Below, in pieces: positions 10,449 through 18,858 of a stretch of 64,000 bases of DNA. The stretch lies in the NCBI RefSeq assembly GCF_024700885.2, contig NZ_CP117016.1. One strand, written 5' to 3'. Numbering within the stretch: position 1 is the first letter of the stretch; the number at the start of each line of letters is the position of its first letter. This stretch comes from Escherichia coli. Lineage in GTDB: Bacteria > Pseudomonadota > Gammaproteobacteria > Enterobacterales > Enterobacteriaceae. The notes below the pieces were generated by a model. The model did not search any database, was not told where the DNA came from, and was given only the letters and a program-made list of their open reading frames with translations. The position numbers and the translations under genes were made by a program.

Positions 10449-11519
10449 TTATTTGATTTCAATTTTGTCCCACTCCCTGCCTCTGTCATCACGATACTGT
10501 GATGCCATGGTGTCCGACTTATGCCCGAGAAGATGTTGAGCAAACTTATCGCTTATCTGCTTCTCATAGAGTCTTGCAGACAAACTGCGCAACTCGTGAA
10601 AGGTTGGCGGATCCCCTTCGAAGGAAAGACCTGATGCTTTTCGTGCGCGCATAAAATACCTTGATACTGTGCCGGATGAAAGCGGTTCACGACGAGTAGA
10701 TGCAATTATGGTTTCTCCGCCAAGAATCTCTTTGCATTTACCAAGTGTTTCCTTCATTGATATCCCGAGAGCATCAACATGCAATGTTGTAGGGATGGCA
10801 ATTTTTACGCCTGTTTTGCTTTGCTCGACATAAAGATATCCATCTACGATATCAGACCACTTCATTTCGCATAAATCACCAACTCGCTGCCCGGTAACAA
10901 CAGCCAGTTCCATTGCAAGTCTGAGCCAACATGGTGATGATTCTGCTGCTTGATAAATTTTCAGGTATTCGTCAGCCGTAAGTCTTGATCTCCTTACCTC
11001 TGATTTTGCTGCGCGAGTGGCAGCGACCGGGTTTGTTGTTATATGGCCTTCAGCTATTGCCTCTCGGAATGCATCGCTCAGTGTTGATCTGATTAACTTG
11101 GCTGACGCCGCCTTGCCCTCGTCTATGTATCCATTGAGCATTGCCGCAATTTCTTTTGTGGTGATGTCTTCAAGTGAAACATCAGGCAGACCCCTCCTTA
11201 TTGCTTTAATTTTGCTCATGTAATTTATGAGTGTCTTCTGCTTGATTCCTCTGCTGGCGAGGATTTTTTCGTAGCGATCAAGCCATGAATGTAACGTAAC
11301 AGAATTATCACTGTTGATTCTCGCTGTCAGAGGCTTGTGTTTGTGTCCTGAAAATAACTCAATATTGGCCTGTATTGCTTCAGTAATTGCTATCCTCCTG
11401 TCTCTGCCTAATCCGAACTCTTTACCCGTCCTTGGGTCCCTGTAGCAGTAATATCCATTGTTTCTTATATAAAGGTTAGGGGGTAAATCCCGGCGCTCAT
11501 GACTTCGCCTTCTTCCCAT
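10449..11519 (-). CDS. int: Lambda-type integrase (tyrosine recombinase)
   Basis: 356-aa ORF MGRRRSHERRDLPPNLYIRNNGYYCYRDPRTGKEF..., recognised as lambda Int; adjacent to attL. Confidence 0.95.
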   Translation of the reverse strand: MGRRRSHERRDLPPNLYIRNNGYYCYRDPRTGKEFGLGRDRRIAITEAIQANIELFSGHKHKPLTARINSDNSVTLHSWLDRYEKILASRGIKQKTLINYMSKIKAIRRGLPDVSLEDITTKEIAAMLNGYIDEGKAASAKLIRSTLSDAFREAIAEGHITTNPVAATRAAKSEVRRSRLTADEYLKIYQAAESSPCWLRLAMELAVVTGQRVGDLCEMKWSDIVDGYLYVEQSKTGVKIAIPTTLHVDALGISMKETLGKCKEILGGETIIASTRREPLSSGTVSRYFMRARKASGLSFEGDPPTFHELRSLSARLYEKQISDKFAQHLLGHKSDTMASQYRDDRGREWDKIEIK

Positions 11520-12349: not shown

Positions 12350-13006
12350 TCACCCCTGGGGCGGTTCTGGTAGCGGCATCCAGTGGGTTACCTCCATGCG
12401 GCACCCATCATCCGACGTAAACCACGAACGATCGTCCGCACTGAACCAGCCAATCCGGATATAACCCCACACATCGAAGAAAAGTACGTCGTGATTATTA
12501 TCCGGCATTCGATCACTACAGCTTATCCAACCATCAGGAGTTACCGGAGAGTTGCCACCGGGAATATTTTCCGGAATATTTTGTTGTGCGTTTTGTGGTT
12601 GTTCGGATTTACCCTGAAGCATGGCGGCGCGGCAGGCGTTCCAGCCAGCTGTTCGCCCAAGCGCGTAAACTTCAGATGGCTCAAGATAATCAATGTCATG
12701 CCCATCCTCATCGTCGTTCTCAGGTAATGCAGCAGGTACTACCGGTACTGGCGGAGCGGCGTAGACTTCAATAATCCCATTATCAATAGGCCATTCCCCA
12801 TCCTTGATGTAGTCACTTGTGCCGTCAACTTGCTGTTCTGCAATGTGGAATGCGCCAATAGGCTCTGCTTCCAGCGATGCCAGTGCAATACGCAGGGCAG
12901 CCAGGATATTCCCCTGGTAATCATCAAGCCCGAAAGGAAGCTCATCACGAATGCTTTCATAATCGTTGATAGCCTGCTGCAGCCATTCTCTTGTGATAGT
13001 GCTCAT
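12350..13006 (-). CDS. Early-left accessory protein with C-terminal DUF551-like domain
   Basis: 218-aa ORF; C-terminus WISCSDRMPD...THWMPLPEPP is typical of prophage DUF551 proteins; stop overlaps the next gene start. Confidence 0.6.
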   Translation of the reverse strand: MSTITREWLQQAINDYESIRDELPFGLDDYQGNILAALRIALASLEAEPIGAFHIAEQQVDGTSDYIKDGEWPIDNGIIEVYAAPPVPVVPAALPENDDEDGHDIDYLEPSEVYALGRTAGWNACRAAMLQGKSEQPQNAQQNIPENIPGGNSPVTPDGWISCSDRMPDNNHDVLFFDVWGYIRIGWFSADDRSWFTSDDGCRMEVTHWMPLPEPPQG

Positions 13007-13671
13007 GATGCCTCTCCTTTACATGCTTCGGTGACGTTTATTCCAGCGTTGTGCAGTGCCTCAAGAACCTGATGCTGCCTGTAAACCATTTCAGTGTGGT
13101 AAGGCTCGTCAAAATCGACGCGATGCAACATGCTATAGCATTGCGGAAGCACAACCTCCCGCAACTCCAGCTCAGCAATGCGCTTCTCTGCGGCTTCCAG
13201 CTTCTCGCGCATATCGTCAACGTACTCGACCAGAGATCCGCCAGCAGGAATTTCGCACTCCTCGACCAGTTGGAAGTAGATATCAGCTGCGGCCCGTGTG
13301 TTGCTATGCCTAGCGTCGCCCATCTCACCTTCACGAAGAGCACCGCGTTCGGCGGTAAGATTGGCTATTTTGCTGTCTTTGCCTTCAAGCTCAACGCGCA
13401 GCTTCCCTACCGTTAGCGCAATATCCTCGTTCTCCTGGTCACGGCGTTTGATGTATTGCTGGTTTCTTTCCCGTTCATCCAGTAGTGCCAGCACGGTTTC
13501 TGGTCCGGCCAGAAATTTGAAGGCGTTGAGCGCATCAATATCCACACCGTAATCTTTAAGTTCCTGTTCACTTAACAAATCATCATCAGCTGGCAACATT
13601 AACAGGCGTTCCATTGCTGGAATTGCACGTTTCGCCGCCTCACGCAGTGCCTGATAGTCAATCTTGCTCAC
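13003..13671 (-). CDS. Ead/Ea22-like hypothetical protein, paralog A
   Basis: 222-aa ORF with N-terminal MSKIDYQALREAA motif shared with the adjacent gene; overlapping start/stop. Confidence 0.6.
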   Translation of the reverse strand: MSKIDYQALREAAKRAIPAMERLLMLPADDDLLSEQELKDYGVDIDALNAFKFLAGPETVLALLDERERNQQYIKRRDQENEDIALTVGKLRVELEGKDSKIANLTAERGALREGEMGDARHSNTRAAADIYFQLVEECEIPAGGSLVEYVDDMREKLEAAEKRIAELELREVVLPQCYSMLHRVDFDEPYHTEMVYRQHQVLEALHNAGINVTEACKGEAS

Positions 13672-14264
13672 TGGTTGCCTCCTTTTCGAAGCTGGGCGGC
13701 GATATCTTCGAGAACGCCATCAGAGAATGAGCGGTCAAAATCGCCTTCCGGCGCATTAGCCATAAACTCAGTAGAGGTAAGAATCATCCGGGCAATATCC
13801 GCGGCGTTCTTCGCAGTATCATCAATAAAACCAGCTTCCCAGGCAGCCAGCATTCTGTTCGCCACAAAATAAGCGCCTTCCTTGCGTGCTTCAGTCTTCA
13901 CTTCAGCTAGAAAAGCATCGGTAGCTGGAGTTTCGCTGTGGTGCAGGGCATCGTTGATAATCATTGCAGCAACTCCGGCCTGCCCTGCATCCGTGACCGA
14001 CACATGCTCAAGAGTTACGGCCATTGCGTGTTTCAGCCCGGCGTTCTCTGCCACCAGCGCCGCGAGATTAGTCTCAAGCTCTGCAATACGGCACATAGCA
14101 TCAATATTTGTGTCTTCCAGCCGCTTAATTTCATCCAGTAGAGCCAGTGCCACCGATGGCGTGAACGCCATACGAAACGCCACAAAATTTTGATGCATAG
14201 GTTCTGTTTCTACTGCAACTGCCGCATCTCGCAGTGCCTGATAGTCAATTGTCATTCTCGCCAT
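13668..14264 (-). CDS. Ead/Ea22-like hypothetical protein, paralog B
   Basis: 198-aa ORF with N-terminal [12 protein letters not shown] motif (compare paralog A). Confidence 0.6.
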   Translation of the reverse strand: MARMTIDYQALRDAAVAVETEPMHQNFVAFRMAFTPSVALALLDEIKRLEDTNIDAMCRIAELETNLAALVAENAGLKHAMAVTLEHVSVTDAGQAGVAAMIINDALHHSETPATDAFLAEVKTEARKEGAYFVANRMLAAWEAGFIDDTAKNAADIARMILTSTEFMANAPEGDFDRSFSDGVLEDIAAQLRKGGNQ

Positions 14265-14896
14265 CCTTCACAGTTGTAATCACGACAGCCTTCAAAATCA
14301 TATGGGCTGTACTGCCAGGTAATTTTTCCGCAATGCGGACAATTCCAACGCACCTTCCCGCTTCGCGACTTCTTTCTTCTGTTCTGCTTTTTCAACCAGT
14401 CAGGCATGACCAAACCTGCGCCCTGAACCATTGTTCTGCGGTTAAAGTTATTGATATTGAACGTCCGGCGCTTTGCTGAATCAGCAATGGAAAATGGCAA
14501 CCAAACTATTCCTGGTTCGTTTTTGTTGGCGACGCTAAAGATGGTCGCTTTACTGAAGTCATCTGTTGGCAATCCACCGTGTTGAAGCCAGTAAACATCG
14601 TTGCCGTTCCAGCTACCTTTTTTGTAGGCCACATACGCAGTGCAATCTGACTCAATCAGGCTTTCTGTAGGGATGTACTGGCAATCAACGTGCCACACTG
14701 CCATTGCATCCACGCTATCCGCGCAAACAGGCTGATCGATATCTCGCCCACAATTCCAGGCTTTTTGGGCTTCTTCCAGCGTGTAAACATGAGCGCGATC
14801 GATATCAGAACTGTAACCATTGCCGTTATGGCAATGGAATGAAGCGTTATTGCCCACAGTTTCACGCGAGCACATCATGTAAAAACGGTTAGTCAC
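14252..14896 (-). CDS. Hypothetical Cys-rich early protein
   Basis: Track ORF 14252..14917; C-terminal CPHCG...CRDYNCEGW Cys cluster; start moved to a GTG at 14896 that is preceded by AGGAGG. Confidence 0.5.
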
Positions 14897-15076
14897 TGGC
14901 TGCCTCCTTTGCGCCACATCGCATTCAGATATTTGTTTTCATTCACTGATGGAAAAGAATTTCTCTTAAGTAATTCCTCTCTCGATGGCATTGGCTTTAC
15001 GCGTTGGCGAATAATCATTTCTGCCGGAAGAATGCCGGGATTGTATGCAAGTCCTCTCATGGTAAATTACTCTTTG

Positions 15077-15391
15077 TTAATTTATTTGTATGCCTGCTCT
15101 TTCTTCATCGAGTTTTTTTAGCTTGTATCGCATAGCTCTTACTGAATAAATTGAGCGGCAGGTTGCAATTGCTATTTCTTCTGCGGAGAACTTACCGAAA
15201 AGTGATACTTCGGCTCTTGTCCATCGTCTTCCACGAAGTCGGCTAACAATGTCAGCGCCAATCCTTGTTGCTTTCGCCATTACTGCTTTTTCAGTCCTTT
15301 CCAGTTTTTCAGCGATAACTTCAACTGGCATTGTCGCCGCCACTTCGCGCAAGAAATCGACTTCCCATTTCTCCCATGGAGTCTTTTTCAT
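15077..15391 (-). CDS. Hypothetical protein with two internal Myb/SANT-like repeats
   Basis: 104-aa ORF with internal duplication (WEKWEVDFLREVAATMPVEVIAEKL / WTRAEVSLFGKFSAEEIAIATCRS). Confidence 0.55.
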   Translation of the reverse strand: MKKTPWEKWEVDFLREVAATMPVEVIAEKLERTEKAVMAKATRIGADIVSRLRGRRWTRAEVSLFGKFSAEEIAIATCRSIYSVRAMRYKLKKLDEERAGIQIN

Positions 15392-15402
15392 AGGCGATAC
15401 CG

Positions 15403-15891
15403 TTATTTGATAAGAAGTGAAGGTTTCCCAACTTTGAGTTGAGCACCGGGGATATTTATTCCTGCTTTTAGTTGGTGTTTGATTGCCAGTTTGTCGGCTT
15501 TAATTGTCGTTTCAAACTCAACGTATTCAGGAGGAAGGGTGCTTGAGTCGATGATTTCTACAGTTTCTGACGGTTTGCGGATTGTTACCTGGTGAATACC
15601 TGCTCGAATCTTTTTCTTGCCAACCATTTCAAGCGATGACGCTATATACGCCATAATGCTGTCAATCTTATTTTGAATTACTGCGGCTCGCTCATTTAGT
15701 GACTTTGCCTCGTCCTTGAGGCGTTCAGCATAACCAGATTCATTTTTAATAATGGCAAGAAGTTGCTCTATTTTATCGGTAAATTCTCCTTCCATGCCTT
15801 CTATTGTGTCAGCAATCATCTCTGGCTCTAAATCTGAATCCATCAATTTTGCGTATTCATTGGCTATTTCATATAGTTTGCTCACTGGCAA
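15403..15891 (-). CDS. Gp157-like phage protein
   Basis: 162-aa coiled-coil-rich ORF immediately downstream of RecT; resembles Siphovirus Gp157 family. Confidence 0.55.
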   Translation of the reverse strand: MPVSKLYEIANEYAKLMDSDLEPEMIADTIEGMEGEFTDKIEQLLAIIKNESGYAERLKDEAKSLNERAAVIQNKIDSIMAYIASSLEMVGKKKIRAGIHQVTIRKPSETVEIIDSSTLPPEYVEFETTIKADKLAIKHQLKAGINIPGAQLKVGKPSLLIK

Positions 15892-16771
15892 CCTCCAGTT
15901 TCGCTTTGCATTCTATGTAAATGGCTTGTACGTTCTGCTGCAATTTCATTCCAGATGTCAGGCGATATGCTTCTGCAAAATATCGCTTCAAATCATCCAT
16001 GTTTTCTGCCTGAGCCATTTCATCACAAAGAAGTTGTGCTTTTTCCATAATTTCCTGCTGGCGTTTCCGTTCATCTTCGCGGATATATTCCTCTGATTTG
16101 TGCGGCATAACTGGTTCAGTCCACACACCTTCTTCTTCGTTTAGTACGTGAATAGCACTATCAAGACGTGATGCCTTAGGCCAATACTTGCTTGCACGCT
16201 TTACGACCGTCTTTCGCGCCATCTCTTCCCAGAATGTTTTCCACGGTCCATTCTTTGCCTTGCTCGTTGCTTCCACAGCTTTAATTTCTGCCAGACTCAT
16301 TTCTTCAGTCAGGTAGTCACCATCTGCTGTTTTAACCGTGCAATAACCACCAACAATAGAGCCTCGCTCACCAAATGCGTTGTATTTGTGGGTTGGTGCT
16401 GAATCAAGACCGTTTGATTCATAGGTGTCGTTTGAGTACACCAGTTTGCATTGCCCCCACTTAATTGATCCTGTCGACTGTGCAAGGTGAAGTAATCCCA
16501 TGTAACTGATATCAAGGCACACCATGCCGTCGCGAGGAACCAGATAAGCCAGTTTGCTGGCCGGGTTTAAGGTGATGCCGATCGCCGCAACGTTGATGAT
16601 AGCGTTCTGTGCGCTGGTCGGATTTGCCAGTGCCGTTTTAGCCAGGTAATCATTTTTCTGGAAATACTGAATTGCAAACTGGCTTTCCTTAGCCCATGTC
16701 ACCGTCTGTTCAGTCAATGCTCCGCAGAATAACTGCTCCTGCTGTTTAACGAATTCAACGATATTGCTCAT
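15869..16771 (-). CDS. recT: RecT-family single-strand annealing recombinase
   Basis: 300-aa ORF with RecT-like core (GYCTVKTADGDY...EEMARKTVVKRASKYWP); occupies the lambda bet position. Confidence 0.8.
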   Translation of the reverse strand: MSNIVEFVKQQEQLFCGALTEQTVTWAKESQFAIQYFQKNDYLAKTALANPTSAQNAIINVAAIGITLNPASKLAYLVPRDGMVCLDISYMGLLHLAQSTGSIKWGQCKLVYSNDTYESNGLDSAPTHKYNAFGERGSIVGGYCTVKTADGDYLTEEMSLAEIKAVEATSKAKNGPWKTFWEEMARKTVVKRASKYWPKASRLDSAIHVLNEEEGVWTEPVMPHKSEEYIREDERKRQQEIMEKAQLLCDEMAQAENMDDLKRYFAEAYRLTSGMKLQQNVQAIYIECKAKLEVASEQTI

Positions 16772-17079
16772 GCTGCTTCTCCATAAATGTGTCTGCGTTT
16801 GAATATTGCGAAGGCATATTCAGCCTTAACTCTTTCGGTTATTGCATCCCAGAACCATTCAGCGGCTTTTTCCTGATAGTTACAGTCATCATCTTCCAGC
16901 CAGTCGATAGCGTCCTTAGTGTGTTCATCTGGTTTATATGAGCGAAGCATTTCGCTTATTGGGTCGCAACGTTTGCAGAGGCGATCAACTTCACTGTTGA
17001 TTCGTTCGTAATCTTCATCAGTAAAACTTGCGATTATTTGCGATATTTCACGCTTATCATTCAGAGTCAGAATCATCAT
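16768..17079 (-). CDS. Hypothetical early protein (103 aa)
   Basis: ORF with overlapping stop/start to recT. Confidence 0.5.
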   Translation of the reverse strand: MMILTLNDKREISQIIASFTDEDYERINSEVDRLCKRCDPISEMLRSYKPDEHTKDAIDWLEDDDCNYQEKAAEWFWDAITERVKAEYAFAIFKRRHIYGEAA

Positions 17080-17432: not shown

Positions 17433-17496
17433 GGGTAACTCCTTATATTTGATTGCATAACGAAAACGCCTCGAGTGAAGCGTTATTGGTATGCAT

Positions 17497-17520
17497 ATAA
17501 AAAGGCCCTCACACTGGAGG
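17497..17520 (-). terminator. Putative leftward intrinsic terminator (tL-like)
   Basis: Hairpin GCCCTC-ACACTG-GAGGGC followed on the minus strand by a U-run. Confidence 0.35.
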
Positions 17521-17605
17521 GCAAAGAAGAGTTCCAATAATCAGAACAAGTCGGCTCCTGTTTAGTTACGAGCGACATTGCTCACATAGCAGACTCGTAA
17601 ATCTG

Positions 17606-18070: not shown

Positions 18071-18109
18071 GTTAGCCTCTGTTGTTTATGCCAAAAATGA
18101 AGGCCACCA

Positions 18110-18361
18110 TCAGGCAGCCTTGTTGTAAATGTTGCAGGTATCAAGTAAGTAATTAGATGGAGCGCCATAAATTATGAATTCATCGTTTGTCGGGTCCATC
18201 TCCATCTCTTGGCCTATTGCCATTCTTGCGTCAGTGTCATCAGCGGCGAAACATAAAACAGCCCACGCACCCATTGTTTTAAAAAGAACTGCAATTGGCT
18301 GTGGTTTTACTGAATTTGCGTTAGCGCGAAAATCACAAATCGCACTTTCATGAAATTCCAT
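18110..18361 (-). CDS. Hypothetical early protein (83 aa), Ral position
   Basis: ORF immediately downstream of N in the leftward operon. Confidence 0.5.
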   Translation of the reverse strand: MEFHESAICDFRANANSVKPQPIAVLFKTMGAWAVLCFAADDTDARMAIGQEMEMDPTNDEFIIYGAPSNYLLDTCNIYNKAA

Positions 18362-18369
18362 ATCTCACC

Positions 18370-18696
18370 TCAAATAAGTGGTTTGCTGCCTAATTTCATT
18401 TTCTGGCGACCAACACAAGTCACGCCCATTTCACTGCGTGGCTTGCTGTACCATGTGCGCTGATTCTTGCGCTCAATACGTTGCAGGTTGCTTTCAATCT
18501 GTTCGTGGTATTCAGCCAGCGCCGTAAGGTCTATCGGATTCAGTGCGCTTTCTACTCGTGATTTCGGTTTGCGATTCAGCGAGAGAATAGGGCGGCTAAC
18601 TGGTTTTGCGCTTACCCCAACCAACAGGGGATTTGCTGCTTTCCATTGAGCCTGTTTCTCTGCGCGACGTTCGCGGCGGCGTGTTTGTGCATCCAT
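18370..18696 (-). CDS. N: Antitermination protein N
   Basis: Internal start of track ORF: MDAQTRRRERRAEKQAQWKAANPLLVGVSAKPV..., the arginine-rich motif of lambda/434 N. Confidence 0.9.
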   Translation of the reverse strand: MDAQTRRRERRAEKQAQWKAANPLLVGVSAKPVSRPILSLNRKPKSRVESALNPIDLTALAEYHEQIESNLQRIERKNQRTWYSKPRSEMGVTCVGRQKMKLGSKPLI

Positions 18697-18858
18697 CTGG
18701 ATTCTCCTGTCAGTTAGCTTTGGTGGTGTGGTAGGTGGGAGACCCATTTCGACCTGCTTCGGCCGACTTCAATTCGGCAATAGTTCCGCAGGCCTCGCCG
18801 CTTTACGTGCGACATATTCCCATCCATGAACCCTTCACCACACCCCAAAGCCTTCTGC

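Follow-up and report, generated by a model that had tools for sequence, protein, structure and literature searches.

What does a 104-aa protein, apparently built from two copies of a helix-turn-helix (HTH) unit, do directly behind the recombination genes of a lambdoid prophage? This question is raised by a single open reading frame (ORF), here called gene X, in the window (the whole stretch of 64,000 nucleotides that was analysed). The protein belongs to the known but poorly characterised Abc1/PHROG 323 class of tandem-HTH proteins. Concerning its function, we estimate a probability of roughly 0.55 that X, as a tandem Myb/SANT/GcrA-type HTH protein and kin of phage P22 Abc1, is a double-stranded DNA (dsDNA)-binding accessory factor for recombination-dependent phage growth.

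Genomic context of gene X

The window carries a lambdoid prophage and gene X lies on the minus strand, in its PL operon. The features concerned are:

18370-18747, minus strand: lambda-N-like gene
17465-17522 and 18100-18121, minus strand: three terminator-like hairpins (consensus scan only)
16768-17079, minus strand: conserved 103-aa ORF of PHROG 3486 (unknown function), with no Pfam match and a 4-nt overlap with recT
15869-16771, minus strand: RecT-family single-strand annealing protein (Pfam RecT, E 3.8e-34)
15403-15891, minus strand: Mu Gam-like/Sipho_Gp157 protein, the last recombination gene (Sipho_Gp157, E 1.6e-36; PHROG 253, E 7.6e-53)
15077-15391, minus strand: gene X, encoding a 104-aa Abc1-class tandem HTH protein (ATG at 15391, stop at 15077-15079)
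14893-15060, minus strand: DUF2737 protein, the downstream neighbour of X (Pfam DUF2737, E 1.4e-32)
13003-13671 and 13668-14264, minus strand: adjacent Ead/Ea22-like paralogues (PF13935, E 1e-29 and 3e-10)
10449-11519: 356-aa ORF at the far end of the PL operon (as called)

The ORF at 18370-18747 contains MDAQTRRRERRAEKQAQWKAANPLL, which we take to be like the arginine-rich RNA-binding motif of lambda N; as called, it includes 17 codons upstream of the Met of this sequence. The three hairpins separate the N-like gene from the recombination module, an arrangement consistent with antiterminated PL transcription. Homologues of the 103-aa ORF accompany RecT-MuGam in 58 of the 79 viral loci described below, and this ORF may therefore be another member of the module. 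The Mu Gam-like gene (PHROG 253 is labelled 'Mu Gam-like end protection') ends 11 nt before gene X. As called, it encodes 162 aa from a TTG start and shares 23 nt with the end of recT. A later ATG is probably the real start, since the annotated relatives in mEpX1 and Gally use an ATG and are 146 aa long.

Downstream of X, the DUF2737 protein is 76% identical to P22 orf56 (BLASTP, E 2e-32), which follows abc2. Gene X therefore occupies the abc1-abc2 slot: the order RecT, Mu Gam-like, X, DUF2737 in the window parallels erf, abc1, abc2, orf56 in P22. Further downstream, the stop and start of the two Ea22-like genes overlap. The gene arrangement of the window recurs in the annotated relatives mEpX1 and Gally and, in both, the gene at the end of the operon corresponding to the 356-aa ORF is the integrase.

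Gene X is conserved and internally duplicated

Gene X is common. Its product is 100% identical to that of HK140 and 97-99% identical to proteins of mEpX1, Gally and Kapi1. Of 5426 complete Escherichia coli genomes, 298 (approximately 5%) carry the gene, always on the chromosome. The label attached to it is almost always 'hypothetical' (all 298 E. coli copies are annotated 'hypothetical protein'). The dN/dS ratio between gene X and its orthologue in Salmonella phage SEN22 is 0.07. Clearly, gene X is genuine and evolves under strong purifying selection. The top PHROG match is PHROG 11492 (E 4.5e-23; function label unknown), and PHROG 323 ('transcriptional regulator, D5-like') also matches (E 2.2e-20). 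Scans with Pfam and NCBIfam produced only a sub-threshold HTH_12 match and noise.

The protein can be divided into four segments, all encoded on the minus strand:

15254-15382, minus strand: repeat 1 (residues 4-46), a three-helix HTH unit with helices at 8-17, 23-30 and 34-44 (AF2 model)
15233-15253, minus strand: basic linker (residues 47-53, DIVSRLR) joining repeat 1 to repeat 2 (pLDDT as low as 69 in block 51-60)
15110-15232, minus strand: repeat 2 (residues 54-94), a shorter HTH unit with helices at 59-66, 70-77 and from 81 onward (matched to repeat 1 with hhalign)
15080-15109, minus strand: C-terminal tail (residues 95-104, DEERAGIQIN), into which the last helix of the AF2 model continues (81-103)

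A preliminary description of the locus, made from the sequence alone, had noted two repeats with the pattern W...E...(L/F)...IA. This pattern does occur twice, as W6, E10, F13/L14 and I26-A27 in the first copy and as W57, E61, L64/F65 and I73-A74 in the second. The spacing from W to IA differs by four residues between the copies, due to a deletion in repeat 2 between helices 1 and 2. Smith-Waterman alignment of one half of X with the other (BLOSUM62, gap 11/1) gives a score of 21, which is the level of shuffled sequences (z approximately 0), so that a repeat cannot be established from this one sequence; with a four-residue indel and low identity, self-alignment of one sequence is uninformative. 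Taken literally, the preliminary description, which had asked for a significant self-alignment, is contradicted at this level and borne out at the level of profiles. Using a family alignment of 22 sequences (33-89% identity), hhalign aligns the repeat 1 and repeat 2 profiles over 37 columns with a probability of 95%, E 3.7e-8 and the expected four-residue indel. In a column-shuffle control the scores were 9.1 +/- 2.5 (maximum 17.4) compared with the observed 34.8, which was reached in 0 of 150 shuffles. In addition, some homologues (approximately 152 aa) contain a third unit inserted ahead of the conserved C-terminal tail, and hhalign matches repeat 2 to this third repeat with E 1.6e-17. In the alignments the X tail, DEERAGIQIN, is related to the NIERNGWD tail of these three-repeat homologues. 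The internal duplication is real, although visible only at the family level.

We therefore attach a negligible probability to the explanation that chance produced the repeat pattern or that the ORF is not a functional gene, and reject it. Chance-level self-alignment of the single sequence and the lack of an above-threshold Pfam match would be expected under this explanation, but it is opposed by the low dN/dS, the clean shuffle controls behind the profile alignment, the homologues with a third repeat and, as described in the next section, a confident AF2 model and 3052 family representatives.

Repeat 1 has its own subfamily motifs, WExWExDFL and IAEKLER[ST], and six of its residues (E10, F13, I26, K29, L30 and R32) are invariant in the 22-sequence alignment.

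Fold and wider family

AF2 modelling of X with the family alignment (pLDDT 84) gives two three-helix bundles, with helices at 8-17/23-30/34-44 and 59-66/70-77/81-103. The pTM of 0.47 means that the relative orientation of the two bundles is not fixed. A profile search run exhaustively over 1.84 billion cluster representatives retrieved 3052 proteins at E<=1e-3. Many of these span 300-900 aa and match the profile in as many as 10 stretches, and a repeat HMM built here detects up to 13 units per protein. The canonical unit of these relatives reads W-T-x-E-E-x-x-F-L...E-I-A-E-x-L-G-R-S...R-A-x-x-L-G-I. With hhalign, repeat 1 matches this Myb-like unit with E 3.3e-19 (99% probability) and repeat 2 with E 4.6e-11. 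Relatives pass the Pfam thresholds for Myb_DNA-binding, Myb_DNA-bind_6, Sigma70_r4_2 and the GcrA N-terminal domain. For example, one of them, P0053, matches Myb_DNA-binding with E 2e-41 (140 bits, seven stretches) and is itself matched by the X profile with E 4.7e-40. A sequence-profile search of the PDB with X gave a sole, weak match, to the NarL HTH (E 0.002). The two bundles of the model and the profile matches to Myb-like repeats support the tandem HTH fold of DNA-binding type that had been suggested from the sequence.

The HTH unit is found fused to helicase (P0053) and to LAGLIDADG nuclease domains (P0152 and P0155), which indicates that in other proteins it is a DNA-binding module. P0053 (807 aa) consists of an N-terminal ResIII/Helicase_C helicase followed by nine near-identical repeat units. 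The 'replication origin binding' protein of T5 (gene T5.108; L016:9546-12332) is annotated with helicase and SANT/Myb InterPro domains, and a helicase joined to an array of repeats looks like a recurring phage architecture.

Two further identities were considered and rejected. X is not a GcrA protein: the other defining domain is missing, there is no match in X to Pfam GcrA (PF07750), and the sigma70-interacting domain is absent from its 104 aa. Nor is it a sigma-70 factor, as it contains only HTH-sized units and no Sigma70_r2 match; matches to Sigma70_r4_2, in homologues and in Abc1, are sub-threshold or borderline.

We also note that, in Salmonella contig JBNFZH010000007.1 (L009:5001-6007), the gene directly downstream of a three-repeat, 152-aa member of the family encodes a phage Dam-type adenine methyltransferase (PF05869). 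The pairing, seen in this one locus only, is curious in that GcrA, the best structural match of the unit, reads methylated adenine.

Charge distribution

X has a pI of 9.86 and a net charge of +7 (22 Lys/Arg and 15 Asp/Glu). The charge is unevenly distributed: repeat 2 together with the linker is strongly basic (pI 10.6) while repeat 1 is mildly acidic (pI 5.25). Since X is basic it is not itself a DNA mimic, and we rejected this anti-defence identity for want of a strongly acidic surface. The suggestion in the preliminary description that X might be an anti-defence protein binding a DNA mimic finds no footing either, as nothing points to a mimic as partner.

The acidic character of repeat 1, and its invariant WExWExDFL and IAEKLER motifs, which are missing from generic repeats, raise another possibility. 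X might be an adaptor or modulator acting through protein contacts with RecBCD, with RNA polymerase (in the manner of sigma region 4) or with another host protein. Its HTH units would then be interaction surfaces, as in SANT domains, with the WExWExDFL/IAEKLER face of repeat 1 as the candidate surface. The weak Sigma70_r4_2 matches and the sigma-70 family name given to Abc1 by NCBI agree with this. We nevertheless consider an adaptor improbable: X as a whole is strongly basic, the unit is repeatedly fused to DNA-acting enzymes, X lacks both sigma region 2 and the sigma-interacting domain of GcrA, and affinity purification (AP-MS) of Abc1 gave no clear pattern of partners (PMC12373910).

Relationship with P22 Abc1 and T5 D5

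The annotators of Gally named their 99%-identical gene 'Anti-RecBCD protein 1, similar to P22 Abc1'. Direct comparison of X with P22 Abc1 by BLASTP and tblastn reveals no similarity, and hhalign using our shallow first alignment (A1) gave only a weak match (probability 13%). The Abc1 family is too narrow for a useful profile, all of its homologues being at least about 88% identical. The X-family HMM, in contrast to these pairwise searches, matches P22 Abc1 with E 4.4e-8 in one colinear alignment that covers both units (residues 12-94), and Abc1 aligns to PHROG 323 from end to end (E 1.3e-23). The C-terminal half of Abc1 matches X repeat 2 (hhalign, E 8.5e-9; reached in 0 of 150 shuffles); the match of its N-terminal half to repeat 1 is marginal (score 19.9; the best shuffle reached 19.2). 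Modelled with AF2 (pLDDT 84.9), Abc1 has the same 3+3 helix layout as X, a likeness that is partly circular because the alignment used included X-family sequences. Judged from profiles only, X is a remote colinear relative of P22 Abc1. The same HMM matches T5 D5 with E 3.3e-9, again as two colinear units.

What has been reported for these relatives bears on function. Abc1 helps P22 recombination but is non-essential, and its molecular function is described as unknown (PMC12315714). Whether it binds RecBCD has never been tested, according to PMC9836394. Its expression leads to cell death that depends on satellite P4 and is suppressed by insertions in a P4 intergenic region; the same study remarks on the HTH of Abc1 (bioRxiv 10.1101/2023.04.06.535777). 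In wild E. coli, several phages gain fitness from Abc1 (PMC12373910). A search of supplementary files of the accessory-gene screen paper did not find the X sequence. According to its record, T5 D5 binds DNA and is required for replication, for late transcription and for early shut-off.

The window itself contains no homologue of abc2, erf or arf in its 64,000 nt (tblastn with P22 Abc2 against the whole window gave nothing better than E 0.5), and the Abc1-Abc2 partnership is therefore inapplicable here.

Association with recombination modules

The preliminary description had regarded a protein of this type as unexpected among recombination genes. It is not: X lies in the P22 abc1 slot, and its family follows recombination modules throughout the material analysed. 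Our first scan of viral contigs recovered only near-identical copies; the diverse set was obtained with a later, smaller alignment and comprises 79 diverse loci (12 X clusters at 90% identity). A recombination module lies immediately upstream of the X family member in all 79. The same is true of seven metagenome or genome loci, and divergent members (33-57% identity) that could be traced to contigs are right after a recombination module in every informative case. At least seven module architectures occur upstream of the family:

RecT-MuGam-X: the type found in the window
RecT-YqaJ-X: L004 and L014
Gam-phrog_21613-YqaJ-X, with the three-repeat form: L009
ExoVIII-phrog_11517-X (DUF3799/ExoVIII): L007, L011 and SEN22
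Sak4-type AAA_24, small ORF, X: L013
DUF3799-RecT-X: viral loci
Rad52_Rad22, 109-aa ORF, X: viral loci
RecT-family gene, YqaJ, X: viral loci

Overlaps of 1-4 nt between the upstream stop and the start of X are frequent. The genes on the downstream side fall into more than 40 unrelated clusters. A single X cluster (>=90% identity) includes 55 loci with RecT-MuGam upstream and four with ExoVIII-phrog_11517. Thus one X allele is found behind two unrelated modules, which ties X to recombination modules generally and not to one recombinase. When the SEN22 locus (L017:1489-1803) is compared with 15077-15391 of the window, the DNA similarity begins at approximately codon 5 of X, which places a mosaic junction at the 5' end of the gene.

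Two of the modules include proteins without a Pfam match. The phrog_11517 protein (approximately 190 aa; L011:3414-3998, L007:513-1112 and L099:2917-3486) adjoins an ExoVIII-like nuclease, and the phrog_21613 protein (167 aa; L009:3881-4384) adjoins a YqaJ nuclease. Judging from their position, where an annealing protein would be expected, both may be unrecognised annealing proteins.

The linkage data also bear on the main rival explanation, a purely regulatory one. X could be a transcription factor without a direct role in recombination, made early from PL, which would bind promoters of the host, the phage or co-resident mobile elements and reprogram expression (for example, of barrier or defence functions). 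The slot behind the module would then be a matter of operon geography only. Such a role is suggested by the likeness of the fold to the GcrA DNA-binding domain, sigma region 4, NarL/RcsB-type HTHs and Myb, by the 'transcriptional regulator, D5-like' label of PHROG 323, by the transcriptional functions in the T5 D5 record and by the P4-dependent death and gain in phage fitness caused by Abc1 (bioRxiv 10.1101/2023.04.06.535777; PMC12373910). The association of one X allele with two different modules is also compatible with it. Operon geography accounts poorly, however, for strict linkage in 79 of 79 loci across at least seven architectures, or for the frequent start/stop overlap with the last recombination gene where downstream neighbours vary freely. 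P22 abc1 mutants, moreover, are reported to show lowered recombination (PMC12315714; PMC9836394), X has no dimerisation or effector domain, and no candidate operator was identified. On balance, we find a transcription factor of this kind conceivable but somewhat unlikely.

Proposed function

Our preferred reading is the dsDNA-binding accessory factor. Under this model X, a small, basic, monomer-sized protein with two diverged HTH units separated by a basic linker, would be produced from the PL transcript along with RecT and the Mu Gam-like protein. Each unit would use its third helix to contact dsDNA, as predicted from the fold and the fusions described above, and the two units might occupy adjacent major grooves, as in c-Myb R2R3 or the bipartite domains of Tc3 or Pax. 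Repeat 2 and the linker, being basic, would provide most of the affinity. Bound in this way, X would act on DNA or on a host factor to aid recombination-dependent phage growth. Its target is more likely to be DNA or a host component than a cognate recombinase, since the same allele accompanies two unrelated modules.

Several observations weigh against an accessory role. The acidic repeat 1 and the conserved glutamates of IAEKLER could mark a protein-binding, SANT-like unit, and the constant slot could be owed to a conserved operon order in lambdoid phages and not to a common function. The effects observed directly for Abc1 (P4-dependent death and host sensitisation) point to transcription or host physiology and not to recombination itself. 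A regulatory or anti-defence role for X, also raised in the preliminary description, is possible by analogy with these Abc1 results (bioRxiv 10.1101/2023.04.06.535777; PMC12373910).

Implications

What is new here is the tie between X and P22 Abc1 and the recognition of the Abc1 class as a duplicated HTH of Myb/GcrA type. The most useful new point is that the class occurs after recombination modules of at least seven architectures. To our knowledge, P22 Abc1 has been without a molecular role since 1987; this old question can now be tested directly. X is also a candidate component to be considered in the transfer of phage recombination modules to recombineering systems. Should X turn out to be a regulator aimed at the host, it would be relevant to the counter-defence and satellite-triggering phenotypes described for Abc1.

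A broader and more speculative suggestion, which we think rather unlikely as it stands, is that Abc1-class tandem-HTH proteins are a general and so far unrecognised component of phage recombination modules. Were this true, the class would be kept beside RecT, Erf, Rad52-like, Sak4 and RecE/YqaJ proteins for a common step that the catalytic proteins do not provide, for example labelling the DNA substrate, shielding it, or diverting a host factor such as RecBCD, and P22 Abc1 would gain a molecular role.

Comparison with known systems

X shares with the Myb/SANT family (PF00249) tandem three-helix bundles with an HTH formed by helices 2 and 3. It does not itself match the Myb profile at E<=10, the link being transitive only, through P0053. 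Of the three spaced tryptophans of Myb, X retains only the first in each unit (W6 and W57); the second and third positions are occupied by residues of the I26/A27 type and by aliphatic residues. Unlike eukaryotic R2R3 Myb proteins, X is a protein of a bacterial virus without an activation domain. The label 'Myb/SANT-like' used in the preliminary description is thus appropriate for the tandem three-helix HTH but not for the spaced-Trp signature, which is lost, or the Pfam Myb threshold, which is not reached; the closest solved structure is GcrA and not a eukaryotic Myb.

With the N-terminal DNA-binding domain of Caulobacter GcrA (PDB 5YIU) the X units share their fold. As a monomer, this domain uses helices 2-3 to bind the major groove (PMC5887438). 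GcrA has one such domain followed by a long linker and a sigma70-interacting domain, whereas X has two units and a 10-residue tail.

T5 D5 and X are both tandem HTH proteins of the PHROG 323/D5-like type. D5 differs in its size (255 aa), its larger number of units and its location in the replication gene cluster of a lytic phage.

P22 Abc1 (anti-RecBCD protein 1, gp35) is of the same size class as X (94 and 104 aa, respectively) and has the same slot, after the annealing or anti-RecBCD genes and before the DUF2737/orf56 gene. Neither the first Trp nor the IAEKLER motif of X repeat 1 is present in Abc1, and its partners are different: abc1 is preceded by erf and followed by abc2, whereas the module of X consists of RecT and a Mu Gam-like protein.
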